A stretch of 64,000 nucleotides of DNA from Thermodesulfobacteriota bacterium (GCA_965204665.1 OZ242002.1:1285865-1349864); one strand, 5' to 3'; numbered from the stretch's first letter, positions 5,852-42,494 are shown. Numbers and translations are program-made. The notes: generated by a model not told the origin, from the sequence alone.

Positions 5852-6385
5852 TCAGCCGGGTACTCCTCCGAGCGGATTCCATTTATCGGTGAGAAGAAGC
5901 ATTCCGGGAAGCAGAAGGGTCAGTACCGACTCTATAATGAACAGATACGCTATCGGCTTGCCGAGGTCCTTGCCCTGGGCAAACGCAAAGAAGCAGAGAA
6001 GCACCAGCAGAGCCCAAGCCCAGCAGAAATAAGCAAATTCCGCAAGCCCGAGACCGTTGAAATGCAACCCGTACCATATGAATACCACAGTCGCGAAAAG
6101 ACAGTACACTCCGAGCCCCTTTGCATCATGACCATGCACAAACACCGCGTACACGAGCAGATATATAAGAGCAAACACACTTACAAGCGCCGTCGCCGCC
6201 GTCAAACCTAGAGTATGCAACTTCCAGGCGGCGATCGCTATCAGCACGCCTACGCCCAGATTGAGCACACCGACTTCCTTTGCGCCGGTTTTCCCCAGAA
6301 GGGTCATCCCATTCGCAAAAAAGACAAAACCAACCAACAACAGTACATAACCTAATAAAGCTTCTACTGGAACCATCGAAACCAT
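5852..6385 (-). CDS. AmiS/UreI-family membrane channel (putative urea or amide transporter)
   Basis: 177 aa with 6 TM; N-terminal pattern LLGYVLLLVGFVFFANG...K..K..GVLNLGVGVLIAI resembles AmiS/UreI. Confidence 0.65.
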   Translation of the reverse strand: MVSMVPVEALLGYVLLLVGFVFFANGMTLLGKTGAKEVGVLNLGVGVLIAIAAWKLHTLGLTAATALVSVFALIYLLVYAVFVHGHDAKGLGVYCLFATVVFIWYGLHFNGLGLAEFAYFCWAWALLVLLCFFAFAQGKDLGKPIAYLFIIESVLTLLLPGMLLLTDKWNPLGGVPG

Positions 6386-7038
6386 ACCTCCTTATGTTTG
6401 ATAAAAGTTCCTGCGCCCCCATGCTCAGGGGTTCTATACACCTTTTATCACAGTTCGGACATAAATGTCAAGCAAAAAATTGCAAATGATTAATTATTGT
6501 AAATATATAACTTACTAAGTTCTGATCTTCTGAAAGTATCAAGTCGGGTTCGATTTTGTCTCTCAAATGACTATTATCGGACACCGAGCAGACTTCTGCT
6601 CAAGTTTGAATTCGTACAGCGACGCATACCGGGCGATGTCATCAGACACCGCTTGCGCACCCGTAACGACAAACTGTTCTCTACGGTTAACGTCAGTAAC
6701 ATCCGACATCCTTTTCGCCTTGCCGCCCTCCGCGCATATTCCGGCAGTTTACTGATAAGGCTTTACAGCATTTGTATTGCTGAATTATTCAGCACAGAAC
6801 ACTCCGCTCCCCCGAAACTCATACGACCCATTTTCAATCTCACATTAAGTTGTCGTAGATTTCCGGTTTTCAGGAAAAATTCGTCCTGCAGTGTCAGAAA
6901 AATCCTGACTTGATACTCGGTATTTCACCGAAATTTTTTGCCGACACGTTTGCTTGCCGGGCCGGCAATTCTTTTACCGCAAGGTTTGAAATTGCGGCGA
7001 ACATAAATACGGAACTTCTTAACTTTCTGTTTCTTCAG

Positions 7039-7047
7039 TGTTATAAT
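7039..7047 (+). promoter_or_regulatory. extended -10 element TGTTATAAT upstream of the 7086 gene
   Basis: Exact match to TGnTATAAT about 38 nt upstream of the ATG. An RBS GGAGGG lies at 7070-7075. Confidence 0.5.
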
Positions 7048-7085
7048 TTCACTTGAGAACCGTATTCCGGAGGGTATGATAAAAA

Positions 7086-7466
7086 ATGGCGAAAAAAAAA
7101 TCAGCCGGCGGGATACCCGCCGATATATGGAGGAAACAACCAGAGAACGGAGCAAGGAGCGCCGGTATAGCGGGCACGGCACTAGGTATTCAGACCGATG
7201 TGCTTCCTAAATACAAAACCTTCGATGTTATCACACTGAGGATAAGCAGGGCGGATTTCGAGTTTCTCCACAATCTCGAGAGAGACATAATGAAAAATCG
7301 TTCCAGCGAGAATAAAAAGGAGAGAATAACCAAGAACACTGTTGTGAGGGCCATGCTTTCCTGCTTTAGAAACATAAAATTCGACAAAGATGAAATTCCT
7401 AATGAAGCTGAACTTAGGGCGAGGATAATGAAAGGTTTGAAGGAGCACCCTTCCTGGTTGTTTTGA
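7086..7466 (+). CDS. hypothetical 126-aa basic protein, possible small DNA-binding or regulatory protein
   Basis: Good promoter and RBS. Lys/Arg-rich. Convergent with the PLD-helicase gene. No recognisable family. Confidence 0.45.
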   Translation: MAKKKSAGGIPADIWRKQPENGARSAGIAGTALGIQTDVLPKYKTFDVITLRISRADFEFLHNLERDIMKNRSSENKKERITKNTVVRAMLSCFRNIKFDKDEIPNEAELRARIMKGLKEHPSWLF

Positions 7467-7555
7467 GGAGTCACTTTATCGTATTTTGCAACAGTCGACT
7501 TGATGTAGGGAGGTCTTAAATCACGGTGCTTGTCAATCAAGCGGGGACAACATCT

Positions 7556-10500
7556 TCAACCCGCGGCTGTCTTTGCGGCCTGATAAAGCCACCCCGGCAT
7601 TGGACGTTTTAGTTCCCACAGTATTTTCATGGGATGTTCAGACTCGTGGCTTCGGTATCGGGCGTGGCCGAGGCAGTGGTATGGAAGGGTCCCGCCTCCG
7701 CTACCCTTTTTGCGTTCACGCACAAACAAGATGACATTCGTATTACCTTGTTCAACGTACCGGAGACCGGTAGGCGTATCAGGTGATGTGGTATTCTGCG
7801 ATTCCCAGTGAAACAGTGTCGGCGATATTGGATAGTCGTTGTAGCGTGTAGAGGGCGAGAAATCTTGGTCAGATTTCTCCAGCGTGATGAACAAGAGATC
7901 TGTTTGCGTTTTCTTATTCCATAGAACACCACCTTGCGGAAGGGCAATCGCGTTGCGTCTGTCGGTGTGTCTGTATGCCGCCATGATCTCACCGAGTGTA
8001 TAAGTTGCATGGCTCGCCAAGGGAATATCACCTTTCGGGTCAATCGGTTCGGGAACTGTGCGGATGCGGTCGGCGAGAATTTCCAGTAGGTCGAGAATCT
8101 CGCGGTGCAACTCTGATGACTCGCAGATTTTTTCTAATGTCTGGTCGGCTTCTTCAATTGATTGCCCACGGCTACCAAGAATGGCAAACAACATGAGTCC
8201 TAGTCGATGTTTGCGGCCCTGCAGTCTCGAAATCCTGTCAGAACGACTCGTTTCCAAGATGTCGCGCCATGCTTCAATTCTCTCGTTGTCGTCTATGTGG
8301 ACCAGTCTACCGAAAGTTTTGAGAACAGGGTTGTCGGTTGACAGACCGGTGTTTAGATCAAAACCCGCTCGCTTGCGGAGTTCAGTAAAACAGTGCCCTG
8401 AACTAGGTCGCGCGTAGATATCTTCTAATGCTGCGTCGGCGTCACGTATGAAAGCACGGAGTCCCGCACTTGGTCCGAGGGCGCGTAAATCGTCGATGAG
8501 ACGCGCACGGGAGTTATGAACGGCTTTTTTAAGATTTCGCAGTACTGTGTTTTTGGAAATGCGGTCCAGTTTGAAAGCGCATCCCGGGGGTAGAAGCGGG
8601 AAGTCGTTTTCTAAGGAGCGCAGTACCTGATGACGGGTGCCTCCCAGTAGAACTCGATAACGTACATCGTAGCGATACTCACGGCGAACTTGATCAACGA
8701 AGTCCAGGACGGTAAGAACCTGCTTTCCTTCTGCCCAGCGAAGTCCTCTTCCCAGTTGCTGGAGAAACACCGTAGCGCTTTCGGTTGGTCGAAGCATCAG
8801 CACGGTGTCGACTTCGGGGATGTCCACTCCCTCGTTGAACAGGTCCACGGTGAAGATGGCGCGGAGTTTGCCCTGTCGCAGGTCCTCAAGCGCATTGCGA
8901 CGGTCATCTTGTGGAGTCTTTGAATCAAGCGCTCGTGCCGGGTAGCCGAAGCGGATGAACTCGCTTGCCATAAAGTGAGCATGGTGGACACCCGCGCAGA
9001 ACCCTAGGGCGCGCATTCGGTGCGGGTCCGTCACCCATTCCTCTATAGCTCGGCAGACCCGCATAGATCGAACATGGTCGCCGGTAAGCAGGTTGTCAAG
9101 TTCGTTTGTTATATATCTCCCGCGCTCAAAACCGACCGTAGAAAGGTCTGTCGCGCTATTCACCCCAAAATAGTGAAACGGACAGAGCAGTCCTTGGTCA
9201 AGTGCGTCCCAAAGCCGAGACTCTGATGCGATGCGGCCGTCGAACCACTCGAGAACCGACTGGCCGTCGGAGCGTTCGGGCGTAGCTGTGAGTCCAAGCA
9301 AAACTTCCGGTTTCAAACGAGACAGCAGTCGTTTGTAACTCTTAGCCGCGGCATGGTGGAATTCGTCCACGATAACCACGGCGAATCCATCCGGGTCAAT
9401 ATCATCAATACATTTGCTGAGGGATTGTATCGAGGCGAAAACATGGCGACCTACTTGTGGATGCTCACCCCCGACCAACAGCTCACCGAATTCCGGTTTT
9501 CCCAGAACCAGTTTAAAAACCCTACGACTCTGACGAAGAATTTCCTCTCTGTGCGCGACAAAGAGCAGAGAATCCAAACCTTGATTGTGCAGTCTCTTGA
9601 AGTCGAATGCCGCAATCCAAGTCTTGCCGGTGCCTGTGGCTGCCACCACGAGATTGCGGCGGTGTCCACGCATCCGTTCCGCTTCAAGTGCTTCAAGTGT
9701 CGTAGATTGATGCGGTTTGGGCGTAACATCCACCAGTAAATGCCGTGTGTTCACCTCATTTGGTGAATCACCTGGTCGCTGTCCTGAGAGTGCCTGATCT
9801 ACTCGGTCAGCATCACGTTCGGGTTCATAATCCTCAAATTCGGGCTCATGCCAATACTGTTCGAAGGTTGTCTTAAATCTTTCGATTACTTCGGGGTTCT
9901 CGACTGCGCTCACGCGCATGTTCCATTCAAGGCCCTCAACCTGTGCTGTACGGGTAAGGTTAGACGAACCGATATAGGCGGTGTGCATTCCACTGCGACG
10001 GTGGAACATCCATGCCTTGGCATGAAGGCGAGTCCGAGCGACTTCGAACGAAATCTTAACTTGCGCGCCGAGATTGATAAGCGCGTCTAGCGCGCGACGC
10101 TCTGTCGACCCTGTATAGACGCTTGTGATCACGCGTATCTGCGTTCCCTCCTGCACACGTTTCTCAAGCTCAGATTGAAATAGACGCAACCCTGAGTAGC
10201 GTACAAACGCGCACAGCAGGTCAATCCGGTCGGCACTTGGTATTTCCCGCTCAATCTCGCTTGCGATCTGAACATCGCGCCGTCCGTTGACGAGAAGCCC
10301 GGTTCGGCGAAGAGGTAGCGCCGGACGAGCGGTAGGCGTGGGATTGTCGTCTGGAGTAAGGCATTTGACAACTTCAGCGATGATGCGGACGGTATCTGTG
10401 ACTTGGTTGTCAGTCGTCACGCCATGTTTGAAAAGCACCTCTACGAGCCGGTTAACAAGGGCGATTTGTTCGGTGGATTGAGTATTTTCATTGCCTGGTA

Positions 10501-10738
10501 TTTCTTCAAGGGCGCATCGAAGGAGTTTGTATATGTGCCGGGCTAATATCTCGGGACGGACGGTTCTGTCGGTCGAACGGACATCCACCCACCAGCCCTG
10601 CGTTTTTCGGGCATTGATTTCCGCCTCCAGAGCAGAGGTGATCAACTCTTCGTAAAGTCCAGAATGAATCAGACGTGTCATAACTGACCTGAACGGAGGA
10701 GAACAAGCGGCAACATCTGCACCGCTATCAAATTTCAA
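7556..10738 (-). CDS. PLD-like (HKD) nuclease / SF2 DEAH-type helicase / C-terminal DUF3427-like fusion protein (COG3886+COG1061 architecture)
   Basis: HKD motif RLHAKAWMF...YIGSSNLT. Helicase motif I VVAATGTGKT, motif II VIVDEFHH, motif III TATP and motif VI QQLGRGLR. A long C-terminal region of ~330 aa follows. Confidence 0.8.
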   Translation of the reverse strand: MKFDSGADVAACSPPFRSVMTRLIHSGLYEELITSALEAEINARKTQGWWVDVRSTDRTVRPEILARHIYKLLRCALEEIPGNENTQSTEQIALVNRLVEVLFKHGVTTDNQVTDTVRIIAEVVKCLTPDDNPTPTARPALPLRRTGLLVNGRRDVQIASEIEREIPSADRIDLLCAFVRYSGLRLFQSELEKRVQEGTQIRVITSVYTGSTERRALDALINLGAQVKISFEVARTRLHAKAWMFHRRSGMHTAYIGSSNLTRTAQVEGLEWNMRVSAVENPEVIERFKTTFEQYWHEPEFEDYEPERDADRVDQALSGQRPGDSPNEVNTRHLLVDVTPKPHQSTTLEALEAERMRGHRRNLVVAATGTGKTWIAAFDFKRLHNQGLDSLLFVAHREEILRQSRRVFKLVLGKPEFGELLVGGEHPQVGRHVFASIQSLSKCIDDIDPDGFAVVIVDEFHHAAAKSYKRLLSRLKPEVLLGLTATPERSDGQSVLEWFDGRIASESRLWDALDQGLLCPFHYFGVNSATDLSTVGFERGRYITNELDNLLTGDHVRSMRVCRAIEEWVTDPHRMRALGFCAGVHHAHFMASEFIRFGYPARALDSKTPQDDRRNALEDLRQGKLRAIFTVDLFNEGVDIPEVDTVLMLRPTESATVFLQQLGRGLRWAEGKQVLTVLDFVDQVRREYRYDVRYRVLLGGTRHQVLRSLENDFPLLPPGCAFKLDRISKNTVLRNLKKAVHNSRARLIDDLRALGPSAGLRAFIRDADAALEDIYARPSSGHCFTELRKRAGFDLNTGLSTDNPVLKTFGRLVHIDDNERIEAWRDILETSRSDRISRLQGRKHRLGLMLFAILGSRGQSIEEADQTLEKICESSELHREILDLLEILADRIRTVPEPIDPKGDIPLASHATYTLGEIMAAYRHTDRRNAIALPQGGVLWNKKTQTDLLFITLEKSDQDFSPSTRYNDYPISPTLFHWESQNTTSPDTPTGLRYVEQGNTNVILFVRERKKGSGGGTLPYHCLGHARYRSHESEHPMKILWELKRPMPGWLYQAAKTAAG

Positions 10739-10868
10739 TTGTCCTCTCAGTTCTAAACCATACCGAGTGTACGTAATTTTACGCGGAATTCACAACATAA
10801 TATTGGTGAATTAGCAGTATGCGGAGTAGCTGGGTGCGGAAAAAACAGTTCGGTTTGAAAAAAACTGC

Positions 10869-10898
10869 TTGACAACATGCGGTGAGGTTTGATTAAAT
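10869..10898 (+). promoter_or_regulatory. putative sigma70 promoter for the ADC-like operon (TTGACA, 17-18 nt spacer, TTAAAT)
   Basis: Read in the divergent intergenic region; followed by a ~160-nt GC-rich structured leader. Confidence 0.35.
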
Positions 10899-11061
10899 AA
10901 ATAACGGGTGAGGTCGCCCCCGCGGCGACCGTCGGATTGTGAGGCTTGATCACGTATACAGAGGGGAGAGGGTTAGGGAGACGGGGGTTGAGGTTCTGGA
11001 GTGTGCGGGTTCCGGATTACTTGCGGTCCGGCCTGAAATCTAATTGTAAGGAGGCTGCAAT

Positions 11062-12042
11062 ATGAGCCATAGTCATTTAAACGTCCCGTTGAAGTACTGG
11101 GAGTTGACGAAAGAGGTCCCGCCCCCTCCGATAGAGCGGGATATAAAGTCGTGGATCATAGCGAATCCGTCGGATCCGCTGTGGGACATAGATGTGCTGC
11201 CGTTGACGTATACGGACAGCAGGTGGTCGGCGTTCGTGGTGAGGTGCGACGAGGCGACGAGGAGTCGTCTGTGCCCGAATCCTCCGTTGGAGGTGTGGGA
11301 CGGGGAGAATGCCGATCTGGTGGAGTTCTGGTATGTGGATCATAAGAACACGATGCTGGGTCCGTATCTCGAGTTCGGAGTGACGATATCGGCGACATAC
11401 AAGGATCCTCAGGGCAATGTGTGGAAGGCGGGGTACTATCCGTATATGTATCTGACGGGTGATGCGCCGGTGGATGCTGGCAGGGTGCTTGGATTTCCGA
11501 AGAAGATGTCGTACATCAGATGTACGGTGCACGGCGGGGAGAAGGGGACGGACTTTTTCGGATTTGCGATGAGTCGTAACGGGTATCTGATGCACAGTGC
11601 GACGGGTCAGTTCGACGACAAGCAGGTTACGCCGCCGTTTTTCTACGGGAAGACGGATTGGGGCAAGTTCAACATGAAGGTTATAACGAGGCCCGACGTA
11701 TCGAGTTCGGAGTGGCAGTTGACGTATCTGCCGTCGGCGCTGCCGCCGCCGTTCGACACGATGATACAGGGGCACAGGTTCAAGATAAAGCCCGAGCACA
11801 CGAGGACTGCGTCGGGGGATGCGGTGAACTGGTTCATGCAGGCTACGCCGTTCGACAACATGGGGGCCGAGTTGAAGATACAGGAGGTTACGGGATTGAT
11901 ATCGTTCGTGTTCGATCTTGTGATACCGCCTGCGCAGGTGCTGTGGACGGAGACGTATGAGAGGCCGGCCAGTTACAGGGGTTATGCGACGCCGTACAAG
12001 TACGGGTTGAGGCAGCAGTTCCCGATAAGTCAGGGGTCATAA
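11062..12042 (+). CDS. acetoacetate decarboxylase (ADC) family protein, paralogue 1
   Basis: Shares the ADC signature with Clostridium ADC (VVPEP-like region, GNVWKAGYYPYMYLTGD, GFPKK). The Schiff-base lysine position is conserved. Confidence 0.75.
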   Translation: MSHSHLNVPLKYWELTKEVPPPPIERDIKSWIIANPSDPLWDIDVLPLTYTDSRWSAFVVRCDEATRSRLCPNPPLEVWDGENADLVEFWYVDHKNTMLGPYLEFGVTISATYKDPQGNVWKAGYYPYMYLTGDAPVDAGRVLGFPKKMSYIRCTVHGGEKGTDFFGFAMSRNGYLMHSATGQFDDKQVTPPFFYGKTDWGKFNMKVITRPDVSSSEWQLTYLPSALPPPFDTMIQGHRFKIKPEHTRTASGDAVNWFMQATPFDNMGAELKIQEVTGLISFVFDLVIPPAQVLWTETYERPASYRGYATPYKYGLRQQFPISQGS

Positions 12043-12074
12043 AAAGAAAGGAATTTTCAAGGAGGTAAGAAATA

Positions 12075-13046
12075 ATGGGATTACAAGCGAATGAGTACAG
12101 TTATCCGTGGTTGGACGAGGGAGAGGTGCCGCCGCTGCCGTTGGACAGGGACAGGATACACATAATAAGTCAGGGAGTGGCGGATCCCGTGTTCGACTAC
12201 GACATCGTACCGTTGACGTATACGGAGAGCAGATGGATGGCCTATGTGATAAGGGCTGACATCAATGCGATGAAGGCGGTGGTGCCGGAGCCGATAGAGG
12301 TTACGGATGACGTGATAGAGTTCTGGTACGTGATACATAAGAACACTATGCTGGGACCGTACATGGAGATGGGAGTGACGTTTTCCGCTACAGTGGATTC
12401 GGGGGACGGGCAGATATACAAGGCGGGGTACTATCCGTATATGTATCTGTCGAACGATTCGCCGATATTCGCGGGTAAGGAGCCGTTCGGGTTTCCGAAG
12501 AAGGCTGCGTACATAGCGGGATTCGAGCACGGAACCAACAACAATTATTTCAATCATCTGATGGAGCGCAGGGGATACATACTGCATACGGCGAACGGGC
12601 GTTATTCGGACAAGCCTTTGTCCGCGAGGCCGACGTTTTACGGCAAGACGGACTGGGGCAGGATGAATTACAGGATAACGACGAGGCCCGACGTATCGAA
12701 CAGCATCCACGAGGTGACGTATCTTCCGTCGGATCTTCCGCCGGGATTCGGGACGGGTCACAGGTTCCAGTTGAATCCCGAGAGTGTGAGGACGGCGGTG
12801 GGGGAGGATGTGCGTTCGTGGTATATGTCTGGGACGCCGTTCGACTATATGGGAGGTCAGATACCTGCGACGGAAGTTGTAGGGCTGATAAGTTTTACAT
12901 TCAATCTGATAATACCGCCTGCGTTGACGATCTGGAGCAGGACGGTGGAGAGGAGTACGGACGACATGAGTCATGTTGTGTATTCCACGCCGTTCGAGTA
13001 TACGATGCGTCACAGGTTCCTGCTGCCGCAGTACAGCCAGGGATAA
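12075..13046 (+). CDS. acetoacetate decarboxylase (ADC) family protein, paralogue 2
   Basis: AMKAVVPEPIEV, YKAGYYPYMYLSND and GFPKKAAY motifs; about 45-50% identical to paralogue 1; RBS AGGAGG. Confidence 0.75.
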   Translation: MGLQANEYSYPWLDEGEVPPLPLDRDRIHIISQGVADPVFDYDIVPLTYTESRWMAYVIRADINAMKAVVPEPIEVTDDVIEFWYVIHKNTMLGPYMEMGVTFSATVDSGDGQIYKAGYYPYMYLSNDSPIFAGKEPFGFPKKAAYIAGFEHGTNNNYFNHLMERRGYILHTANGRYSDKPLSARPTFYGKTDWGRMNYRITTRPDVSNSIHEVTYLPSDLPPGFGTGHRFQLNPESVRTAVGEDVRSWYMSGTPFDYMGGQIPATEVVGLISFTFNLIIPPALTIWSRTVERSTDDMSHVVYSTPFEYTMRHRFLLPQYSQG

Positions 13047-13089
13047 AGGCGTGAGGTCTGCAGCTCGGAGTTGCGGACACTGAAGAAAC

Positions 13090-13130
13090 GGAGAGGAGGG
13101 ATGCAGAAAGGTTCTCCCTCCTCTTTTTTT
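13090..13130 (+). terminator. rho-independent terminator after the ADC pair
   Basis: GGAGAGGAGGGA...TCCCTCCTC followed by TTTTTTT. Confidence 0.7.
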
Positions 13131-13222
13131 GTAGAACGGGATTTAAACAGGGGGGGTGCTGTGCTACAAGATTTTTTGGTTATATCGCTACTATTCGAAG
13201 AAGTTTTATTCGTAAGTTCTAT

Positions 13223-14719
13223 TTAAAATTGACCTGCTTGTTCGCCAAGCGGTGTAATCTCCGATTGTCCACGCGGAACAGTCTCGTAATCACATCCCAA
13301 AGCCCTGGCAAGTGATCCTAGTCGTCGCCTGACGGTTTCACAGTGAGGCAGCTGATCCGGCATATGAAGAACCATCTTTCCCGGCAAATACTCAACCTTA
13401 GTGTTTTCAAGAATTCGCGCGACACCGCCGGAAACTGTGTACGCGAGACGAAGAGCAAGCCCGATAACCTTGGATCTCGCAATACCGTCCTTATCAAGAA
13501 GACCGGTCTCCTCCCAGCGGCGGACAAGATCTGCAACCGCAGCATGACGCGATGCTACGGAGAGTGCAATCTTTATCCTCTCGGAATGACCGATACCCAC
13601 AAGAGGCATCCTAGATATCCTTAGAAACACTTGCTCCGCTCTGTACTCGGGATGCTCTGAAATACCTATATCGGAAAGATGACAGATGGCAAGCATAAGC
13701 CTCGGGTTTGCGGTGCTTATATCAGGGAGAACTGCAGAAATCCAGCGGTAAAGAGCCTCTCCGGACTCACTTGTTCTTCCCGCCCGACGCACAACCTCCT
13801 CACACATAACTACAAGCGGGTCGAGTCTGCGCTGTTCCACCGAGAGATCACCATGTATGCATCCTTCCCTCAGTCCGTAAGTGGAAAAGACAACCTGACT
13901 TACTGCAGTCTTTCGAATTATGCTTTCCATAACCGCCGCGGCGTAAGGAGCATGCTCAGATCTTGCTCGACCGAAAATCTCAAACGCTTTCGCCGAATCC
14001 GGCGGGATTTCTGAAACATCGGAAAGCATCTCAATTGCTTCCTCGCTGGATAGACTGTAAGCGTGAACTATACGAAGCGGGTAGTCTTCAGTCTCCATAT
14101 GGTTTTTAGCGAGAGACCGCCATGAGCCGCCGACTGCGTAAAAAGTTTTGCCGGCGGCCTTTTCCAGCCAGGAGATTTCGTCAAGCAACGGGGATGCGAG
14201 TTTTCTTTGAGCCTTTTGCGGATTAAATCCGCTTTCAGAAAGAGCAATAGTACCAAGAGGAAGAGTTACAAGGTTTTCTATCCTTCCCCCGTGGACCTCG
14301 ACAAGTTCAAGACTTCCTCCTCCCAGGTCTCCCACTATACCGTCCGCATACGGGATTGAGTACAGCACACCATTTGCGGAGAGCCTCGCTTCCTCTTCAC
14401 CTGTGAGCACCCGAAGCGGAATTCCGCACTCATTCTCAACTGCCTTCTTGAACTCTTCGCCGTTCAGAGCCGCTCTGACTGCAGCTGTTGCAACAGCCTT
14501 TATACTGGAAACCTTCATTGAGTGCGCAATATCTACAAAACGACTTATGGTTCGCATAGCAAGGTCGACGCTTTGCGGCGACATCGTTCCACGGGAATCC
14601 ATCCCTCTTCCCAGTCCGCATTGAACTTTTTCATCAAGCACTGGAAGAGGAGCCCGACGCGGACCTTTATAGACCACAAGACGGATGGAGTTTGAGCCCA
14701 CATCGATCACGGCTGTCAT
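13223..14719 (-). CDS. ppx: exopolyphosphatase / guanosine pentaphosphate phosphohydrolase (Ppx/GppA family)
   Basis: AVIDVGSNSIRLVVY and DLGGGSLEL motifs of the Ppx/GppA ASKHA fold. The start is probably the internal Met at 14719. Confidence 0.85.
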   Translation of the reverse strand: MTAVIDVGSNSIRLVVYKGPRRAPLPVLDEKVQCGLGRGMDSRGTMSPQSVDLAMRTISRFVDIAHSMKVSSIKAVATAAVRAALNGEEFKKAVENECGIPLRVLTGEEEARLSANGVLYSIPYADGIVGDLGGGSLELVEVHGGRIENLVTLPLGTIALSESGFNPQKAQRKLASPLLDEISWLEKAAGKTFYAVGGSWRSLAKNHMETEDYPLRIVHAYSLSSEEAIEMLSDVSEIPPDSAKAFEIFGRARSEHAPYAAAVMESIIRKTAVSQVVFSTYGLREGCIHGDLSVEQRRLDPLVVMCEEVVRRAGRTSESGEALYRWISAVLPDISTANPRLMLAICHLSDIGISEHPEYRAEQVFLRISRMPLVGIGHSERIKIALSVASRHAAVADLVRRWEETGLLDKDGIARSKVIGLALRLAYTVSGGVARILENTKVEYLPGKMVLHMPDQLPHCETVRRRLGSLARALGCDYETVPRGQSEITPLGEQAGQF

Positions 14720-14765
14720 GTCGTGCGACGGGGGAGAATTCCGAGAGAGAATGGTGCTCATGAAT

Positions 14766-16925
14766 TTATTTCCGGACAAGTTCGGCCGGCATCATCGGCC
14801 TTGATTCGGCAATAGCTTTCCCTCTCCCCGAGAGGCTGGGGTTGGTCATAAAATACTCGTGGGCTGAGAAACCCCCGGAGCCGTTTTGAAGTTTGGTAAA
14901 TGAACCGTCAGGCTGCATTTCCCAACTTCCCGCCACATCGTTGAGGTTGGCGACCATCACCTGCTCGACAATATGCTTTTTAACTGTGGCGTTTTCTATA
15001 GGGATAAAGGATTCAACCCTGCGGTTAAGATTGCGCGGCATCCAGTCGGCGGAGGATATAAACACCCTGCATCCTTCGGAAGGGAGTCCTTGTCCCGCTC
15101 CAAAGCATACGACCCTGCTGTGCTCGAGAAAACGTCCGACCATGCTCTTCATCCGTATATTTTCTGAAAGATCCGCTACCCCCGGCCGCAGGCAACATAT
15201 GCCTCTCACAAAAAGTTCAATTCGTACTCCCGCACAACTTGCGCAATAAAGAGCGTCTATGATTTCTCTGTCCACAAGAGCGTTCATCTTGGCCCATATA
15301 ACGGCCGGAAGTCCATTTTCCGCATGGGAGATCTCCTGATTTATAAGTTCGAGAATACAGGGCCTCAGAGTTTCGGGAGAATAGAAAATCTTCTCCATTT
15401 TCTCCGGAGTCGCATAGCCTGTCATGTAGTTAAAAAGCTTTGCCGCATCGCGGCCCAGAGCGTCATCCGAGGTGAAGTAACTGAGATCTGTATAAATCTT
15501 CGCGGTAATCGGATGGTAATTTCCAGTGCCGAAATGCGTGTAGGTGCGGGTATCGCCACCCTCTCTTCTTACGACAAGAGAAACCTTGGCATGGGTTTTA
15601 AGTTCAATGAATCCGTAAACCACTTGGACCCCTGCGTTTTCAAGATCCCGCGCCCAACGTATATTCGCTTCCTCATCGAAACGCGCCTTAAGTTCTACAA
15701 GCGCCGTGACCGATTTCCCGGCTTCCGCCGCCTCTATAAGCGTCTTCACTATCGGGGAATCATCCGATGTGCGATAAAGGGTCTGTTTTATGGCGACAAC
15801 TGCGGCATCTTGTGCCGCCTGCTTGAGAAATTCCACTACCACATCAAAACTCTCGTACGGATGATGGACGACGAAATCCTTCTGCCTTATTGCGGCGATT
15901 ACGTCGCCGCCGAACTCCCTCACTCTTTCCGGGTAGCGTATTTTCATCCGCCTGTAAAGAAGGTCGCTTCTTTCGCCGAGTACTATCTCGCTTATATTTC
16001 TAAGTCCCAACATCCCTTCTATTCTGAAAAAATGAGCGTAATCGGCGTTAACCTGAGTCATTATGAAATTGACCAAGTCCTCAGGCATATCGGTGTCCAC
16101 ATCCACCCTGATGATATAACCTCCCCTGCGCTGTTTAAGCGCGGTCTCGAAAGTCTTGACCAGATCTTCCGCTTCCTCATCTATTTCAATCTGACTGTCC
16201 TTGGTTATCTGAAAAATTCCGTGAGATTCCACTTCAAAACCTGGAAATAGAGAACCCATGTGATGCGCGATCGCTTTTTCAATAGGAATAAACTGGGTGT
16301 TTTCCCCGGGAATTCTGACAAAACGATTAACCTGCGGCGGGAGCAGGATAAGACCTTTCATTTGTTTTTCATCCTCAGCCCTATTAAGAGTTACTGCGTA
16401 CACGAGGCTTCCGTTATGTATGAAGGGAAACGGATGAGCCGGGTCTATGGCAAGCGGGGTCAGAACGGGAAAAAGTTGTGTGGAGAACCACGATGAAAGC
16501 CATCGGGAATCCATAGAGTTGAGTTTCTCCGGGTCAACTATGCTTATACCCGTGTTTTGACACAGAGAAAGCAGTTTTTTTTCGCATTCGTACTGCCGGT
16601 CAATCAGGGATTTGACCTTTTCCCTTATGGCTTTAAGTTGCTCGGATGGAGTAAGTCCATCAATGCTTCTGTCCGTGACTCCCGCCATTACCTGCCCCAC
16701 AAGGCCCGCAACGCGCACCATGTAGAACTCATCAAGATTGCTTGCGGAAATGGAAAGAAACCTGACTCTTTCAAGAAGAGGAATTTCCTGGTTCGAGGCC
16801 GTTTCGAGAACCCTGAGATTAAAATCCAGCCATGAAAGTTCTCTGTTGAGAAATCTCTTAGGCAGATCAGGTAAAGAATTCTCGCCCGCAATCCCGAGTG
16901 CGGAATCTGTAGAAAAAAAAGACAT
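14766..16925 (-). CDS. ppk: polyphosphate kinase 1
   Basis: 719 aa with the PPK1 N-terminal, head and two PLD-like C-terminal domains (RFLSISASNLDEFYMVRVAGL; HAKVSLVVRRE). Confidence 0.9.
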   Translation of the reverse strand: MSFFSTDSALGIAGENSLPDLPKRFLNRELSWLDFNLRVLETASNQEIPLLERVRFLSISASNLDEFYMVRVAGLVGQVMAGVTDRSIDGLTPSEQLKAIREKVKSLIDRQYECEKKLLSLCQNTGISIVDPEKLNSMDSRWLSSWFSTQLFPVLTPLAIDPAHPFPFIHNGSLVYAVTLNRAEDEKQMKGLILLPPQVNRFVRIPGENTQFIPIEKAIAHHMGSLFPGFEVESHGIFQITKDSQIEIDEEAEDLVKTFETALKQRRGGYIIRVDVDTDMPEDLVNFIMTQVNADYAHFFRIEGMLGLRNISEIVLGERSDLLYRRMKIRYPERVREFGGDVIAAIRQKDFVVHHPYESFDVVVEFLKQAAQDAAVVAIKQTLYRTSDDSPIVKTLIEAAEAGKSVTALVELKARFDEEANIRWARDLENAGVQVVYGFIELKTHAKVSLVVRREGGDTRTYTHFGTGNYHPITAKIYTDLSYFTSDDALGRDAAKLFNYMTGYATPEKMEKIFYSPETLRPCILELINQEISHAENGLPAVIWAKMNALVDREIIDALYCASCAGVRIELFVRGICCLRPGVADLSENIRMKSMVGRFLEHSRVVCFGAGQGLPSEGCRVFISSADWMPRNLNRRVESFIPIENATVKKHIVEQVMVANLNDVAGSWEMQPDGSFTKLQNGSGGFSAHEYFMTNPSLSGRGKAIAESRPMMPAELVRK

Positions 16926-17025
16926 TACTAACCGCCGCTCTTAATTATACCGTATCGGGAGAAATCAGTCTGCTCCGTCGAAATTGTTGTCGGTCACGGA
17001 AAAATACTTCCGAATTTGCCTGAAC

Positions 17026-18531
17026 TCAAATTTGCCAGAAAAGTTCGAACTTACGCAGGTCCCTCCACCTCGGTTGGGCGGGACCGAGACATTTCGTCAC
17101 TCTGGCCTGCGACCAGTCGTGAACAAGACGGACGGTGGAAGAATCAAGCACGCCCGGTTTTACAGTGGCGATTACCTGACGGGCGGCAGCGGCGTCATTG
17201 GCCTGTCCTAAACTATCTTGAAAATTCGACATGGATTTCATAAAAGGCCTTACTGTCTCCGACCCTTCCCACAGAGAGCCGAAGAACTGAGTTGCGTAAC
17301 GAGTTTTCTTTCCCCGCTTTCTCACCTCGTGAAGATCATCCCCAGTAAGACGGGAAAGAGGACGCGTATCTTCAAGAAAATAACGCCAAGTTCTGCAAAG
17401 CACATCCCGCGCAAACGGTTTTACCGGCCGGGAAAAAGAACCACATTCCGACAGAGAGGCTATCCATCGTCCGAATTGAAGCACAAGACGGGCATAGCGT
17501 CGGCTCGCAAGACACTCTTTCACATCTTTTATCGCTCTGCGGCGGTGTCTGCGCGCTGTGCTGCGCAGACGCTCAATCATCCTGCCGTCTCCCCTGTGAA
17601 ACGACTCTATTCTGGGCAATGTTCCGCTTAGAAAAACTTCCCAGTCACGCGCGGGAGCGAGCTTCTGCTGAAACCATCTGAATTCTCCGTTGAATGCCTT
17701 GCGCTTATCATAGGGAAGTACTTTCTTAAACGCTCGCAGCGCAGAGCGCACCCGCCTCATCGCAACTCTCATTTGATGCACGCCTTCCGGTTTTCCCTCG
17801 AGCGCGGGGATTTCATTTGCGAACATATGACCAAGAGCGCCTGATATGATGGATTTAAACGCATCTCCGACGCTTGCGTTGTCAGCAAGAAGCACCCTGG
17901 GAGCTTTAATAGGTTTCGGGCGCAGTGAGGGCATCGCAATAGCGTAACCTCTTTGAGCCTTTGTTCTGTGGGACGGACGGATATCGCAAGTCTCGCAGAG
18001 TTGTAATGCCATATCGAACATCTGTGCCGGGTCTCCTGAGAGAAGTTCAAGTTCCGCCTCGCATATTGGTTCTTCTACATGACCCTTGCTGGTCTCCGCT
18101 CGAATAAACCCTCGGTCAACGGCAAGTTCAAACTCCGTTCCGCGGCTTCTTATCCGTACGGCCCGGCGCTCAAAGTCCGTGGTGAAAACAGGACGAAGAT
18201 TCTTCTGATAACGTCTGCGGGAAAAATAACGGCCGAGGTCGGGCACGGATTCGTTTGTGGAAACCGTCCACTCCCTGAAATTCTGAAGTCCCGCAGGTCC
18301 TTGAATCGGAACCTTTAAAGTCTGTTCCCGCAAAGTTCCGTTGTCCCGGACGCGAAGAGCTGCGCCTGATTTTCTCAACGCGTGACGAGGGGTATCAAAA
18401 TACGTACTCACGAGCCGACATTCTTTATAATGATGGATCTCTTCTCCTGATGACTGAAAACGCCTGCCGCGCAGAATTTTCCGCGCCGCCTGCGGCGACA
18501 GGGAAAGATTTAGTTCTGTTTCCTCATACAT
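17026..18531 (-). CDS. CYTH (triphosphate tunnel metalloenzyme) plus CHAD domain protein
   Basis: N-terminal acidic CYTH-like motif, ~300-aa helical Arg-rich C-terminal region, and adjacency to ppk-ppx. Confidence 0.65.
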   Translation of the reverse strand: MYEETELNLSLSPQAARKILRGRRFQSSGEEIHHYKECRLVSTYFDTPRHALRKSGAALRVRDNGTLREQTLKVPIQGPAGLQNFREWTVSTNESVPDLGRYFSRRRYQKNLRPVFTTDFERRAVRIRSRGTEFELAVDRGFIRAETSKGHVEEPICEAELELLSGDPAQMFDMALQLCETCDIRPSHRTKAQRGYAIAMPSLRPKPIKAPRVLLADNASVGDAFKSIISGALGHMFANEIPALEGKPEGVHQMRVAMRRVRSALRAFKKVLPYDKRKAFNGEFRWFQQKLAPARDWEVFLSGTLPRIESFHRGDGRMIERLRSTARRHRRRAIKDVKECLASRRYARLVLQFGRWIASLSECGSFSRPVKPFARDVLCRTWRYFLEDTRPLSRLTGDDLHEVRKRGKKTRYATQFFGSLWEGSETVRPFMKSMSNFQDSLGQANDAAAARQVIATVKPGVLDSSTVRLVHDWSQARVTKCLGPAQPRWRDLRKFELFWQI

Positions 18532-26125: not shown

Positions 26126-27658
26126 TCAGTCTACAAACTCATACTTGTTCTGACTGATGATGTTTCCCGCCTTGTCGTTGTCCGCCGTGCTGCCTATCTG
26201 AACAACTTCAGTTCCTCCCACGGAAATCTTGCCGGCAGCGTTGGTCAACGCTCCGGCCCCAGCCGCGAAGCCCCTGAACTGAATCCTGTCGTCCGCCAAT
26301 GTGAAGTCCGTAATGATGTCCACACCGCCGTCGGCTTTTCTGATGAGGAAAGTGTCGTTTCCGGCTCCGCCGGTAAGGTTGTCGGCGCCTTCTTCACCTA
26401 TGAGAACATCATTCCCTGCTCCTCCGTCAAGAGTGTCGGTACCTTTACCGCCTCTGAGGGTGTCGTTCCCTCCTCTGCCTTCAAGAGTGTCGTCGGCGTT
26501 TCCTCCTCTGAGAGTATTCGCCTTGCCGTCCCCTTTAAAAGTAACGGCGGTAGTACGAGGACCGAACCTTGACACAGCAGTAAGGTTCTCGAAGTTGGAA
26601 GCAAAACTGGGAGGATTCGCAAGATCGAAGGTACTAAGCGCGTTACTGCCCCATGAAGCGGCAGTACTCCCACCAGCAATGAGATATGTACCTCCATACA
26701 CTACAAGGGTATCATTTCCCGGCCCGCCATCTGTTGTACCTGCTCCGGCGTTCCCGGTGGGTGGAGAGGGGTCGATTGTGTCATCTCCGGCTCCACCCTT
26801 TATAGTGTCGATACCGAACCATCCATCTATAATATTGTCTTTATCGTCTCCGATAATAGTGTCGTTACCGATACCGCCGACAACATCCTCAATACCCGTA
26901 ATTTTATCACTCCCATATGTAGCATGCGTCGAAGAGCCTAGGCTGAGGTCTACAGTATGACCCGCTGTAATGAAACTTGTGGGTGGGCGACTGGTGGTCC
27001 CGGGTGCAAGAGGAGGAGCAAAAACCAGCCTGTCATGGTCTCCGGCACCACCGATAAACGTATCGTCACCCGGGTCGGTAATGAGAAATTCATCATTACC
27101 GGGTCCGCCGTAGATCGTATCATTACCGGGTCCGCCGTAGAAAAACCCCCTCCCCTTTCCACCGTAGAGAGTGTCATTTCCGTCTCCACCCCGGAAATGG
27201 TCGTTCCCGTCTTCGCCGTAGAGAGTGTCATCGCCGTTCTCACCGTAGAGCAGATCATTACCTCCTCCGCCGTAAACAGTATCATCACCATCACCGGCTT
27301 TAATGTCGTTGATGTATTGATTTCCGCAGATGACATCGTCATCCGCAGTTCCCGTGACATCATCGGAGACACCGGGAAGCGCATTTATACCGTTGCTGAC
27401 GTCGCATCTGGGATCACCGAAGGACTTTCCCGGATCTCCCTGCAGACCCGTCGCTCCCGGTGCTCCCGAGTCTCCTTTATCTCCCTTATCCCCCTTATCT
27501 CCTTTCGCCCCGTCTTTCCCTGCCGGTCCCGCAGGCCCCATGTCTCCTTCACAGGCGGCAAAGAAAACCGCTCCGCCGAGCAGAAACAACAAAACTAAGA
27601 AATTACGTAATTTCATAATACAACCTCCTTTGATAAGATGTTTTTTATTAATAAGCAA
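26126..27658 (-). CDS. lipoprotein with collagen-like Gly-X-Y repeats and RTX (hemolysin-type calcium-binding) nonapeptide repeats, paralogue 1
   Basis: Signal peptide plus lipobox (LFAAC). GPAGPAGKDGAKGDKGDKGDKGD collagen-like region. Many GGxGNDxxY repeats. Confidence 0.8.
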   Translation of the reverse strand: MLINKKHLIKGGCIMKLRNFLVLLFLLGGAVFFAACEGDMGPAGPAGKDGAKGDKGDKGDKGDSGAPGATGLQGDPGKSFGDPRCDVSNGINALPGVSDDVTGTADDDVICGNQYINDIKAGDGDDTVYGGGGNDLLYGENGDDTLYGEDGNDHFRGGDGNDTLYGGKGRGFFYGGPGNDTIYGGPGNDEFLITDPGDDTFIGGAGDHDRLVFAPPLAPGTTSRPPTSFITAGHTVDLSLGSSTHATYGSDKITGIEDVVGGIGNDTIIGDDKDNIIDGWFGIDTIKGGAGDDTIDPSPPTGNAGAGTTDGGPGNDTLVVYGGTYLIAGGSTAASWGSNALSTFDLANPPSFASNFENLTAVSRFGPRTTAVTFKGDGKANTLRGGNADDTLEGRGGNDTLRGGKGTDTLDGGAGNDVLIGEEGADNLTGGAGNDTFLIRKADGGVDIITDFTLADDRIQFRGFAAGAGALTNAAGKISVGGTEVVQIGSTADNDKAGNIISQNKYEFVD

Positions 27659-31292: not shown

Positions 31293-31769
31293 TCATTTGC
31301 TTGCGTAGTGAGGACAAAGCTGGCTGATCTTCAAGCACAGACGTTTCATTAAAGAATCTTGTTGCCGCCAGTCGCTGTCCGTCGCGTTCAGCACAACCGC
31401 ATTCGCTTTCACTGCTACCGCAAGAAATTTCCGGTCGCTCGGGTCAAAGTTGTTTCGGGGCAACTCTTCAAAACTTCTCCGGTCATCCTCCGACGGAGTA
31501 ATGACAACTCTCCGTACGCGGCCATTCGGCAAGTGTTGGTTATCCCATAGATATTTGAAAAACATGTCACCTACTCCCGGTTTGCCGGAGAGAGACAGGT
31601 GATTTCTATATTCTTCGATGATCAACCCTCTTTCATCGACCGCTACAGTTTCTCTCTCGACCACTTCCTGCAATTTTTCCACGCAGCTCAGTTGACATTT
31701 AAAGTCAATATTTTCGTTGCCGCCGTTAGCCACGACGGCAACATTGGTATCAACGACAAATACATTCAT
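31293..31769 (-). CDS. PIN-domain nuclease
   Basis: FVVDTNV (Asp7), acidic residues around 38-40, and DRKFLAVAVKANAVVLNATDSDW (Asp112, Asp131/133). The start codon overlaps the stop of the upstream ATPase gene. Confidence 0.65.
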   Translation of the reverse strand: MNVFVVDTNVAVVANGGNENIDFKCQLSCVEKLQEVVERETVAVDERGLIIEEYRNHLSLSGKPGVGDMFFKYLWDNQHLPNGRVRRVVITPSEDDRRSFEELPRNNFDPSDRKFLAVAVKANAVVLNATDSDWRQQDSLMKRLCLKISQLCPHYASK

Positions 31770-33139
31770 CAGGAATGTCCTATTCTTCTTTTCAAAGAAG
31801 CTTTGGCTATAGCTGCTACTTCTCCCATTTCATCGCCGAAGAAATTCTTCGGCCAGTTCTCCACCTCTCCCCACTCATTGAGGGACAGATCGGAAATCTG
31901 CGCTTTATGTCCTCTAGTCGATACAAAATACAATTTGATGTTCTCCGGAGATTCCTTTCCCTCTGCCACCCTGCGCTGCAGGCGGCGCAACAGATATTCG
32001 CTATGGCTTTCCACGATGATTTGCACATCTCGGACATTGGAAACTTCCAACATCAGATCTGCAAGTCCGCTCTGCACTGCAGGATGGAGATGTATCTCGG
32101 GTTGTTCCATCAGCACAGTGGAGCCTTCCGGGACATAGTAAAGAAGTACCAACGCCGGCAGAACTTGCGATACGCCGAATCCAACATCGGTTAATGCGGT
32201 TTGCGGACTTGACCTGGATGTCTTCACGATTGCCCTGTACAGATTAGTTCCCTCGGAGATCTCCTCGATGCTGAATTCGTGAATAAGCCCCAGTTTTTTG
32301 AGCCAGTGTGCGATCACTTCCTGAAATGTTTTTTCTGGATAATATTTGATACGTTTCATTTCTTTATTGCGGGTAGCGGCGAGAATCGCTTCGACCGTGC
32401 GTTCACCTCGTTGTCCGACATCGCAGGGGCCGGAACCGGCCCAATTATATTGTCGTTGCGGATATTCCCGCAGAGGACCGAGGTAGTAGATGGAGTCCAT
32501 CAAATTTTCGTATTCCCACTCGAAAAGATTCAGAAACTCGGCGTTCTGATAGTGAAAACGCATGTCCGGAAACAGGTGTGTCTTGATCGGGCGGGGAATA
32601 GTGTTTGCTTGACCTTTGTTGCGTACGAATTCAAAATCGTCAGCAGTTGTCTTCAGGTCGAATTCATTATCCGACCTAGGCTTGGATTTCAACCGGAAAT
32701 CCGCCCCGGCGAACCTGTAGGCTAACTCATATGTCCAAGGAAGGTCGTTCTTCATGCCGACCTGGCATCGAGTCTGAAGAGAGTTACCTTTCAGTTGAGG
32801 GATGGAAGGTCCGGTCTGCATGTTCATCTCTCTCATCATGTCTGAGAGTTCGAGAGTATCGGATAACGACCAGTCAAGGAGCCAGCCGATCCGCTTTTTT
32901 TCATCATGAAGGTGCACTATATCACGAAAGGACCTGAGGCTTACTAAGTCGGAAGGACCTCCGAAATGGAGCACCAACCGGCGGTCTGTCGCATTCTTGG
33001 TCTGTTTAAGCAGGAGTAGAAATTGTAGAAGACTGCTCTTGCCCGCACTGTTTGTGCCGAAAAATCCGGTTACTTTTCCGAATCGTATGTCCGCTTCCTT
33101 CCACGCCTTGAAATTTGAGAGTTGCAGTTTGTTTATCAT
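31769..33139 (-). CDS. ABC-type AAA ATPase (AAA_15/AAA_21-like) with a C-terminal DUF3696-like motif
   Basis: Walker A GTNSAGKSS. Walker B / D-loop VLMEQPEIHLHP. H-loop ESHSE. C-terminal WPKNFFGDE. Confidence 0.7.
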   Translation of the reverse strand: MINKLQLSNFKAWKEADIRFGKVTGFFGTNSAGKSSLLQFLLLLKQTKNATDRRLVLHFGGPSDLVSLRSFRDIVHLHDEKKRIGWLLDWSLSDTLELSDMMREMNMQTGPSIPQLKGNSLQTRCQVGMKNDLPWTYELAYRFAGADFRLKSKPRSDNEFDLKTTADDFEFVRNKGQANTIPRPIKTHLFPDMRFHYQNAEFLNLFEWEYENLMDSIYYLGPLREYPQRQYNWAGSGPCDVGQRGERTVEAILAATRNKEMKRIKYYPEKTFQEVIAHWLKKLGLIHEFSIEEISEGTNLYRAIVKTSRSSPQTALTDVGFGVSQVLPALVLLYYVPEGSTVLMEQPEIHLHPAVQSGLADLMLEVSNVRDVQIIVESHSEYLLRRLQRRVAEGKESPENIKLYFVSTRGHKAQISDLSLNEWGEVENWPKNFFGDEMGEVAAIAKASLKRRIGHS

Positions 33140-42242: not shown

Positions 42243-42494
42243 TTCCTCCTTAAATGTGTAATTTTTACTTGTATTGGTTTTACTTCTGATCTTTATGTCT
42301 GACCGTATAGAGCATCAGACATGACAGCTAATCGCGATTGGAAATGCCTGAATGGATTGATCAGGTCGGGTCCATCCGGACATTTCATAACTGCTCAACT
42401 ATCGCCAGGCGGACTGCGCAAGAATGTATCCGATTCCCTTTGCTGCAATCCCGTTCGGTCCTTAGGAACTCCAGGGCATCTTAACAGCCGGTCG

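Follow-up and report, generated by a model that had tools for sequence, protein, structure and literature searches.

What are two adjacent genes for acetoacetate decarboxylase (ADC)-like proteins, written in a codon usage that their neighbours do not share, doing in a bacterial chromosome: are they an imported block, or do they belong to the core of their lineage? We addressed this question for a stretch of 64,000 nucleotides from a Thermodesulfobacteriota bacterium (GCA_965204665.1 OZ242002.1:1285865-1349864), referred to here as the window and numbered from its first letter, in which the pair, genes A and B, lies at positions 10869-13130. The initial annotation had suggested that it belongs to a horizontally acquired block together with a neighbouring helicase gene. 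Our comparison with related genomes leads to a different answer: the pair is no import but a core operon of Dadabacteria, inherited vertically and under extreme constraint. On balance, we favour the view that it is a very highly expressed core operon for a heteromeric ADC-type Schiff-base enzyme with a small beta-keto acid or ketone as its substrate within an acyl-CoA module. The kind of enzyme is already known; what is new is an ultra-conserved, duplicated, two-subunit ADC-like operon with a G bias along its whole transcript and a conserved pathway context. Public annotation names the proteins merely "acetoacetate decarboxylase family protein", and we found no literature on this family or operon for Dadabacteria, for an association with DUF35 and thiolase proteins, or for anaerobic acetone degradation. 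The Dadabacteria are widespread and uncultured, and their core metabolism is deduced from annotation alone; the pair, with its acyl-CoA dehydrogenase, thiolase-DUF35 and channel genes, defines a testable pathway.

A vertically inherited and duplicated operon

Homologues were sought in one genome per GTDB species, which yielded 244 matching stretches. Almost all of the best 80 belong to metagenome-assembled genomes (MAGs) labelled "Thermodesulfobacteriota" or Candidatus Dadabacteria, and many of these are complete chromosomes, 1.4-2.4 Mb in size. Orthologues of A are 73-100% identical overall; within the window's clade, A is 96-100% (rounded BLAST values) and B 93-98% identical, while the upstream S41 peptidase reaches just 57-61% where A is at 96-100%. 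About half of the synonymous sites differ between clade genomes (pS 0.47-0.63, dS 0.75-1.4), and the ratio of nonsynonymous to synonymous substitution rates (dN/dS, Nei-Gojobori) is 0.007-0.04; outside the clade, synonymous changes have reached saturation where the proteins are 93% identical. The upstream order S41 peptidase, AmiS/UreI channel, c8 (a small conserved protein), A and B is common to about 17 relatives. This conservation, the low dN/dS and a codon bias that persists across the clade argue against recent horizontal gene transfer (HGT) from a donor rich in G at third codon positions (G3). An unameliorated import is implausible as well, since the odd composition is common to the whole clade in genomes of 43-60% GC. 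A genomic island would be absent from relatives and have a composition explained by its donor, and this pair is present across the lineage. The opposite possibility raised at the outset, a conserved core feature of ordinary composition, describes the locus for the most part: the pair is conserved and its composition is ordinary in distant relatives, but it is G-biased in the window's clade.

The proposed partner in the acquired block, a "PLD-helicase" of 1060 aa (7556-10738, minus strand) with PLDc_2, ResIII, Helicase_C and DUF3427 domains, aligns over its full length with a PADLOC type IV methyl-directed restriction enzyme (E 2.6e-246). It stands between c8 and the promoter of the pair in the window genome only, and the supposed co-occurrence of the two was seen in none of the 84 other loci inspected. 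Since relatives keep the order c8-A-B, it is the helicase that was inserted and the ADC pair that is resident. The idea that both form one horizontally acquired GC-rich islet, perhaps with a secondary-metabolic function, draws on the GC content and codon usage of the pair, which differ from those of its neighbours, on the slightly higher GC of the adjacent helicase (0.53) and on near-identical A and B proteins filed under very different taxon labels in public bins. We judge it highly improbable: the pair is a lineage feature found in 244 GTDB stretches with its upstream synteny kept, its low dN/dS holds at dS of at least 0.75, the helicase has an ordinary G3 of 0.23, no biosynthetic genes lie near the pair, and the odd labels fit a mis-binned 2.3-kb repeat.

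These labels were also considered, and rejected, as evidence of mobility between phyla. Copies with more than 80% protein identity are labelled Methanosuratincola, Waddliaceae, Spirochaetia, Poribacteria, Ruegeria, Methylococcaceae and Bathyarchaeota in public data, and labels of this kind occur among our loci L037, L046, L055, L067 and L077. Mis-binning accounts for them, and the long contigs have Dadabacteria-like flanks; the "Spirochaetia" contig (L037), for example, has the flanks seen in Dadabacteria chromosomes (L040 and L045). Many contigs of about 2 kb that carry A and B proteins also exist in public data, and both these and the bins of unrelated phyla are explained by collapse of the 2.3-kb repeat during assembly. 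Such a repeat, once mis-binned in public MAGs, can fake HGT signals.

The repeat exists because the operon is duplicated. Of 23 clade assemblies, most of them complete chromosomes, 18 have the pair at two loci far apart; this state was read in the relatives, and any second copy in the source genome would fall beyond the ends of the window. The segment shared by the two copies measures 2.24-2.42 kb in the 18 genome pairs (2.24-2.30 kb in 17 of them), is 98.1-100% identical at the nucleotide level, and extends from about 190 nt 5' of A to about 95 nt past B, which corresponds to positions 10869-13130 with promoter, leader, A, B and terminator. The two types of locus have conserved but different flanks, and the copies within a genome are more alike than orthologues between genomes, the pattern of concerted evolution. 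From this near-identity within genomes, the divergence between them and the distinct conserved flanks, we conclude that the duplication is old and that the copies are homogenised by gene conversion. The AmiS/UreI gene is likewise present twice, at 93-98% identity. In assembly CBDAUE01 (L033 and L035), the 5' and 3' flanks of both ADC units are swapped relative to other genomes, which indicates recombination between the two 2.3-kb repeats.

The enterobacterial tufA and tufB genes, which are duplicated, gene-converted and highly expressed, offer a parallel, for they too form two distant copies that are near-identical within a genome and diverge between genomes, and recombination between them rearranges their flanks. 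Here, by contrast, what is duplicated is a two-gene metabolic operon complete with promoter, leader and terminator, and the genomes measure only 1.4-2.4 Mb. The 3' side of the window's locus has its own peculiarity: a ppx-ppk-CHAD polyphosphate cluster (13223-18531, minus strand) lies directly 3' of the pair and is 3' of the pair in no relative, so this flank has been rearranged in the window genome.

Two long proteins of the ADC superfamily

Gene A (11062-12042, plus strand) and gene B (12075-13046, plus strand) encode long-form ADC-superfamily proteins of 326 and 323 aa that are 49% identical over 320 aa, in good agreement with the tandem paralogues of about 325 aa and 45-50% identity first described. 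Family membership is also borne out, as both proteins pass the gathering score of 29.8 of the Pfam ADC family PF06314 (67.7 bits for A, 75.3 for B) and an AlphaFold2 model of B (pLDDT 84) adopts the ADC fold. When this model was searched with Foldseek, the top 24 matches were without exception structures of the ADC superfamily (E 5e-17 to 9e-12), headed by the true ADCs 3BGT and 3BH2 (TM 0.79-0.82, normalised to the target); MppR, Swit_4259 and Sbi00515 ranked lower (TM 0.64-0.75). In a profile search of the PDB, true ADCs matched with E values of about 1e-15 (best 1.2e-15), against at least 0.02 (0.02-0.07) for MppR, Sbi00515 and Swit_4259. Neither sequence nor fold thus places the pair closer to the aldolase-dehydratases of the MppR/Sbi00515 type than to true ADCs.

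The Schiff-base lysine K115 of the Clostridium acetobutylicum ADC (3BH2) and its neighbour K116 align, both pairwise and by profile, with K142 and K143 of B in the motif GFPKK, and E76 aligns with E98 in YMEMG; all three residues are invariant in 81 family sequences, of A and B type alike, so the catalytic lysine and glutamate that were to be checked are present. The Schiff-base block had initially been located in KAGYYPYMYL. This motif does occur in both proteins, but its lysine is substituted in several family members and the catalytic lysine is K142. The VVPEP motif, also attributed to both, is found in B, while A has LCPNPP.

Both proteins are about 80 aa longer than ADCs of 244 aa, as had been noted, and the additional length is spread over a segment at the N terminus, an insertion within the protein and a C-terminal tail. 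The tail is modelled with low confidence and carries the nearly invariant residues Y309, R312 and F315 (YxxxRxxF); it would be suited to subunit docking. A profile search against 1.8 billion representatives returned about five full-length clusters at 50% identity before dropping to E values of about 1e-14, where the ordinary ADCs of 240 aa begin. The A/B family is therefore a small, slowly evolving, separate branch, which upholds its description as a long ADC subfamily of unassigned function. True ADC is a single homo-oligomeric protein of about 245 aa, an architecture that the 326- and 323-aa paralogues do not share. A precedes B in a fixed order in nearly all loci. The two most likely assemble as a hetero-oligomer.

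Compared with known enzymes, the pair resembles acetoacetate decarboxylase (EC 4.1.1.4; 3BH2, and 3BGT from Chromobacterium violaceum) in its fold, in its best PDB sequence match and in the exact alignment of K115, K116 and E76. It differs in an identity of 18-22%, in its length, in consisting of two tandem paralogues instead of one gene, in active-site residues R29 and E61 that are out of register, in scores below the NCBIfam cut-off, and in a gene context without ctfAB. With MppR, Sbi00515 and Swit_4259, which show that the ADC scaffold supports imine chemistry other than decarboxylation, it has in common the fold, the catalytic lysine in a GFPKK-type strand and an equivalent of E76; these proteins, however, are products of single genes of about 260 aa, are 12-16% identical to A and B, and, in the case of MppR, act in antibiotic biosynthesis, whereas the context of the pair consists of catabolic acyl-CoA genes.

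The transcription unit and its G-rich transcript

Positions 10869-13130 make up a single, complete transcription unit, from promoter through terminator; the span originally singled out encloses exactly this unit, since signals stand at both of its ends (all of those given here are on the plus strand). A consensus -35 box, TTGACA (10869-10874), forms the 5' edge of the segment that is duplicated within genomes, and all 67 homologous upstream regions have TTGAC[AT], including those of distant Dadabacteria with saturated synonymous sites. Just 5' of it are A-tracts resembling an UP element (10838-10868), and a tract of at least five A no more than 18 nt 5' of TTGAC[AT] recurs in 56 of the 67 regions. 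The extended -10 element, TG-A-TTAAAT, lies at 10890-10898; a generic promoter scan missed it, and a -10 that is either TG-extended or TATAAT-like is correctly spaced from the -35 box in 63 of the 67 loci.

Judged by the position of this promoter, the transcript would begin at about GGGTGAGG, which is identical in 25 of 25 aligned leaders and is followed by a 5'-proximal stem-loop (10906-10934 for both). Pairing in the stem is kept through changes on both sides at three base pairs of the stem, and the hairpin folds in each of six divergent leaders. Stabilising 5' hairpins of mRNAs are known from other systems, and this one probably protects the mRNA. Toward the other end of the leader, AAATCT constitutes a second invariant motif before the Shine-Dalgarno (SD) sequence AAGGAGG of gene A (11048-11054), eight bases before the ATG; AGGAGGCT is invariant in the 25 aligned leaders, and AAGGAGG is found in 23 of them. 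Gene B has its own AAGGAGG (12059-12065) within the 32-nt spacer between the genes. Beyond B, a first hairpin (13054-13081) is followed by an intrinsic terminator with a 12-bp G+A-rich stem and a T run (13090-13133). This region of two hairpins and a U7 run folds with z = -3.1, a stability reached by 0 of 200 shuffles, so that the strong terminator predicted at first is well founded; it is part of the segment that both copies in relatives share at 98-99.96% identity. We count the conservation of these expression signals beyond synonymous saturation as support for a high-output unit.

The leader is about 155 nt long in the window and 130-160 nt in homologous loci. It had been described as structured and G-rich. 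The second property is evident (G 0.37, C 0.17, with a G-rich, C-poor tract at 10960-11012), but the structure amounts to the one conserved 5' hairpin, and the whole leader is no more stable than its shuffles (z = +1.5). A riboswitch or another ligand-sensing RNA would be in keeping with an untranslated region (UTR) of this length in which GGGTGAGG and AAATCT stay invariant where synonymous sites are saturated. We nevertheless think it quite unlikely, as a search of Rfam 15 returned no family at the gathering score or at E up to 10, covariation backs only one short hairpin, and the middle of the leader is hard to align and differs in architecture between clades; a 5' stabilising hairpin together with SD-like G tracts is the simpler explanation. 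A canonical G-quadruplex was also considered and dropped: the window copy has four tracts of three or more G, but these are not conserved in the leaders of relatives.

The strong deviation in GC and codon usage that had been reported lies in the codons. GC is raised modestly, to 0.56 in A and 0.54 in B against 0.49-0.53 in neighbouring genes, whereas G3 is 0.57 and 0.50, against about 0.26 pooled over the other genes of the window, whose open reading frames reach at most 0.38. Codons ending in G prevail in the pair (GAG 97%, AAG 96%, CAG 94%, ACG 87%, CCG 77%, GCG 74%, GTG 72%), AGG provides 72% of arginine codons (23 AGG against 1 CGG), and ATA provides 82% of isoleucine codons and is preferred over ATC, with no ATT at all. 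The two-fold C/T boxes are near background (TAC 45%, AAC 52%, GAC 59%), except for phenylalanine. The background itself is unusual for a bacterium of about 50% GC, with ATA at 46% of isoleucine codons and AGA plus AGG at 47% of arginine codons. Across the window's clade, G3 is 0.36-0.57 in A and B against 0.21-0.33 in the flanks, while Dadabacteria outside it have an ordinary G3 even at 92-95% protein identity (L037, L040 and L045). The excess of G extends to the untranslated leader and the 3' UTR; in 41 leaders of the G-biased clade, mean G is 0.33 and mean C 0.16, as compared with a mean G of 0.22 in 20 other Dadabacteria.

We favour a cause at the level of the nucleic acid. The native mRNAs fold at -37.0 (A) and -34.7 (B) kcal per 120 nt, which is more stable than after reshuffling with their own codon usage (-34.5 and -32.6), after mirroring of G3 and C3 (-32.1 and -30.4) or after in silico recoding with background codon usage (-27.8 and -28.2). 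Candidate causes would be a stable, compact mRNA, or a G-rich, C-poor transcript that serves Rho poorly, the loading sites of Rho being C-rich and G-poor. Two other causes were discarded. A bias that keeps the mRNA unstructured is contradicted by the same folding values, and replication-strand skew by downstream genes on the same strand (clusters 16, 13, 7 and 12), which have no G3 excess.

Ordinary translational selection, with abundant tRNAs reading NNG, AGG and ATA and the pair being the most expressed gene sampled, would also produce a bias toward G endings, and we treat it as a tentative possibility. The bias is graded, with a weaker G3 excess (+0.06 to +0.10) in the linked DUF35, AmiS and thiolase genes and smaller ones in NuoK and SufB; it tends to rise weakly with protein conservation (rho 0.38, p 0.07), and the genome background already leans toward ATA and AGR. 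But C-ending codons of two-fold pyrimidine boxes are the most universal target of translational selection, and apart from phenylalanine they are barely favoured here; the preference for ATA over ATC, the G excess in both UTRs and the greater stability of the native mRNAs over synonymous reshuffles speak against this explanation as well. A G enrichment that spans the transcript provides a clean natural case for separating synonymous selection at the tRNA level from that at the mRNA level.

Open, arginine-rich frames antisense to both genes had been ascribed to a high GC content. The frames exist, in codon-aligned register on the minus strand (240 codons at 11077-11799 and 310 codons at 12081-13013), but they are open because TTA, CTA and TCA are nearly absent from the sense strand (A3, the share of A at third positions, is 0.07-0.11). 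That they encode a real overlapping protein is suggested by their length without a stop, and we give this next to no credence: the stop-generating sense codons are rare in any case, the product would be of low complexity and rich in Arg, His and Pro, and in relatives whose proteins are nearly identical the same frame is interrupted by 5-18 stops, the copy in L005, where A is 100% identical (rounded by BLAST), having 8.

Gene neighbourhood and proposed function

In Dadabacteria, the pair is accompanied by genes for a Bcd/AcrC-like acyl-CoA dehydrogenase (ACAD), an SCP-x-type thiolase, a DUF35/OB protein, a MaoC hydratase and an AmiS/UreI channel, often also by a Sir2 protein and an aldehyde dehydrogenase, in same-strand, divergent or convergent arrangements. 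The acyl-CoA dehydrogenase, the thiolase with its DUF35 protein and Sir2 are the neighbours common to loci from Dadabacteria to Firmicutes, to which the Dadabacteria add the MaoC hydratase and the channel, and the anaerobes an HMG-CoA-synthase-like protein. The pathway context thus also occurs in sulfate-reducing Firmicutes and Desulfobacteria-like bacteria, and the ACAD of their loci is 54-55% identical to that of Dadabacteria. In Desulfofundulus luciae and Desulfobacteria-like contigs, the genes 5' of the pair are ACAD, HMG-CoA-synthase-like protein, thiolase, DUF35, (DctQ), EtfB, EtfA and (FeS/CCG oxidoreductase), followed by A and B. Two variants are found on the 3' side: one with an aminotransferase (directly 3' of the pair in Desulfofundulus-type operons), DctP, a radical SAM protein, an acyl-CoA ligase and Sir2, and another with two DUF2148 proteins and a GAF-PAS sigma-54 activator. 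The latter (L090-L092, at about 13.2-16.6 kb) had a precomputed Pfam match to MimR_N, MimR being an acetone-responsive regulator, which our own Pfam scan did not reproduce; its best NCBIfam match is DhaR. The neighbouring thiolases match NF053570 and BbsB, and the thiolase, HMG-CoA-synthase-like and OB/DUF35 matches are all below the equivalog cut-offs. One lineage lacks a context of this kind.

None of the inspected operons with the pair contains a 3-hydroxyacyl-CoA dehydrogenase. The recurring theme would be the oxidation of short or branched acyl-CoA without that enzyme, joined to an imine-forming one. The neighbour genes belong to the families of the archaeal acetoacetyl-CoA thiolase/HMG-CoA synthase/DUF35 complex and of the BbsAB and Ltp2-ChsH2 thiolase-DUF35 pairs, which are known biochemically; none of these described systems is known to include an ADC-like pair.

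The AmiS/UreI-family channel (5852-6385, minus strand; Pfam AmiS_UreI, E 1.1e-25) is a probable functional partner. It accompanies the pair in 52 of 81 loci and does so in three arrangements, its G3 is raised in the window, and it is 93% identical to the copy in L035, where the adjacent peptidase is about 60% identical. Channels of the UreI and AmiS type serve urea and short amides; in this case the channel travels and co-duplicates with the ADC-like pair, and no urease or amidase gene is found near it. The c8 protein (126 aa; 7086-7466, plus strand) is directly 5' of the pair in relatives, on the same strand as A and B in 19 loci, and has no family match in Pfam and NCBIfam scans.

From these elements we propose that the thiolase module would make acetoacetate or a close homologue, which the lysine imine formed at K142 would decarboxylate to a small ketone; decarboxylation is taken as the default chemistry because the closest solved relatives are true decarboxylases. 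The ketone could cross the membrane through the AmiS/UreI channel, which would pass small neutral carbonyl or amide molecules, and the same reaction could run in reverse. The enzyme would thereby work at the end or at the entry of a short-chain acyl-CoA module of acyl-CoA dehydrogenase, thiolase-DUF35 and Sir2; both its substrate and the direction of its reaction are proposals drawn from this context. In the window's clade, the unit was duplicated, gene conversion keeps the copies identical, and G became enriched along the entire transcript with its UTRs; duplication and G enrichment would be adaptations for high dosage and mRNA performance. Its conservation above that of its surroundings, two homogenised copies, a codon dialect of its own and the expression signals make the pair probably one of the cell's main enzymes, and probably a central enzyme of small-genome Dadabacteria.

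Several observations weigh against a heteromeric, highly expressed decarboxylase. Both proteins fall far below the cut-off of 150 of the NCBIfam ADC model NF002614 (28.6 and 56.2 bits). R29 and E61 of 3BH2, which we take to be the active-site residues by which true ADCs are recognised, align with S52 and W84; an invariant R53 at +1 and an invariant E82 at -2 may be their functional equivalents. A CoA-transferase or thioesterase that would release free acetoacetate does not consistently adjoin the pair in any of the loci. Some "Thermodesulfobacteriota" (L080, L082 and L084, at about 7000-11500, and L069) have a lone B-type gene that is 79-81% identical to B, with a TetR/FadR-like regulator 5' and a split B12-dependent acyl-CoA mutase 3', to which L069 adds an acyl-CoA dehydrogenase; a heteromer is therefore not obligatory for the family. 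A neighbour-joining tree of A and B types left unresolved whether their split preceded the divergence of Firmicutes and Dadabacteria. The high expression is suggested by signals, duplication and constraint, which is an indirect basis, and translational selection, as discussed above, offers another origin for the G-ending codons.

The displaced R29 and E61 and the low NCBIfam scores also speak for an aldolase-dehydratase or hydratase-aldolase of the MppR, Sbi00515 and Swit_4259 type, which would form its imine with a 2-oxo acid, for example pyruvate, and either couple that acid to an aldehyde or ketone that the acyl-CoA module handles or cleave the two apart. The aminotransferase 3' of the pair in Desulfofundulus-type operons and the aldehyde dehydrogenase of the Dadabacteria locus are in line with such an enzyme, and dehydrogenase, hydratase and thiolase-like enzymes without a 3-hydroxyacyl-CoA dehydrogenase would fit retro-aldol chemistry. 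Sequence and fold are, however, clearly nearer to true ADCs, and R53 and E82 lie within one to two residues of the ADC positions. We rate this possibility as rather unlikely, but as a serious alternative.

A further option, which we consider distinctly improbable, is that A and B constitute an ATP-independent ketone-activating enzyme that forms an enamine from acetone or another small ketone entering by way of the AmiS/UreI channel; the enamine would then be carboxylated or condensed, and the product passed to the thiolase/DUF35/acyl-CoA module. It is suggested by the ADC scaffold, by a channel for molecules isosteric with acetone, by the precomputed MimR_N match of the GAF-PAS sigma-54 regulator in anaerobe operons and by the HMG-CoA-synthase-like and acyl-CoA-mutase neighbours. 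The reaction would be near equilibrium and huge amounts of enzyme would thus be needed, and A and B would be the main carbon-entry enzyme of these Dadabacteria.

Elsewhere in the window, the block with the highest GC (0.52-0.59), at 41244-46390, encodes a Mutator-family transposase along with a MerR regulator, a VWA protein and a protein with an ARPP-1 domain; a mobile insertion is more plausible there than at the ADC pair. Two adjacent genes at 31293-33139 (minus strand) have matches to HEC-03A (E 1.2e-60) and HEC-03B (E 8e-194; an AAA_15/DUF3696 ATPase), which form a candidate defence pair. Two paralogues, at 26126-27658 and 46707-48005 (both on the minus strand), combine collagen-triple-helix with RTX calcium-binding repeats, and a protein of the M78/IrrE peptidase type with PADLOC matches to capP and RmrA is encoded at 58193-59323 (plus strand), just 5' of dnaG-rpoD.

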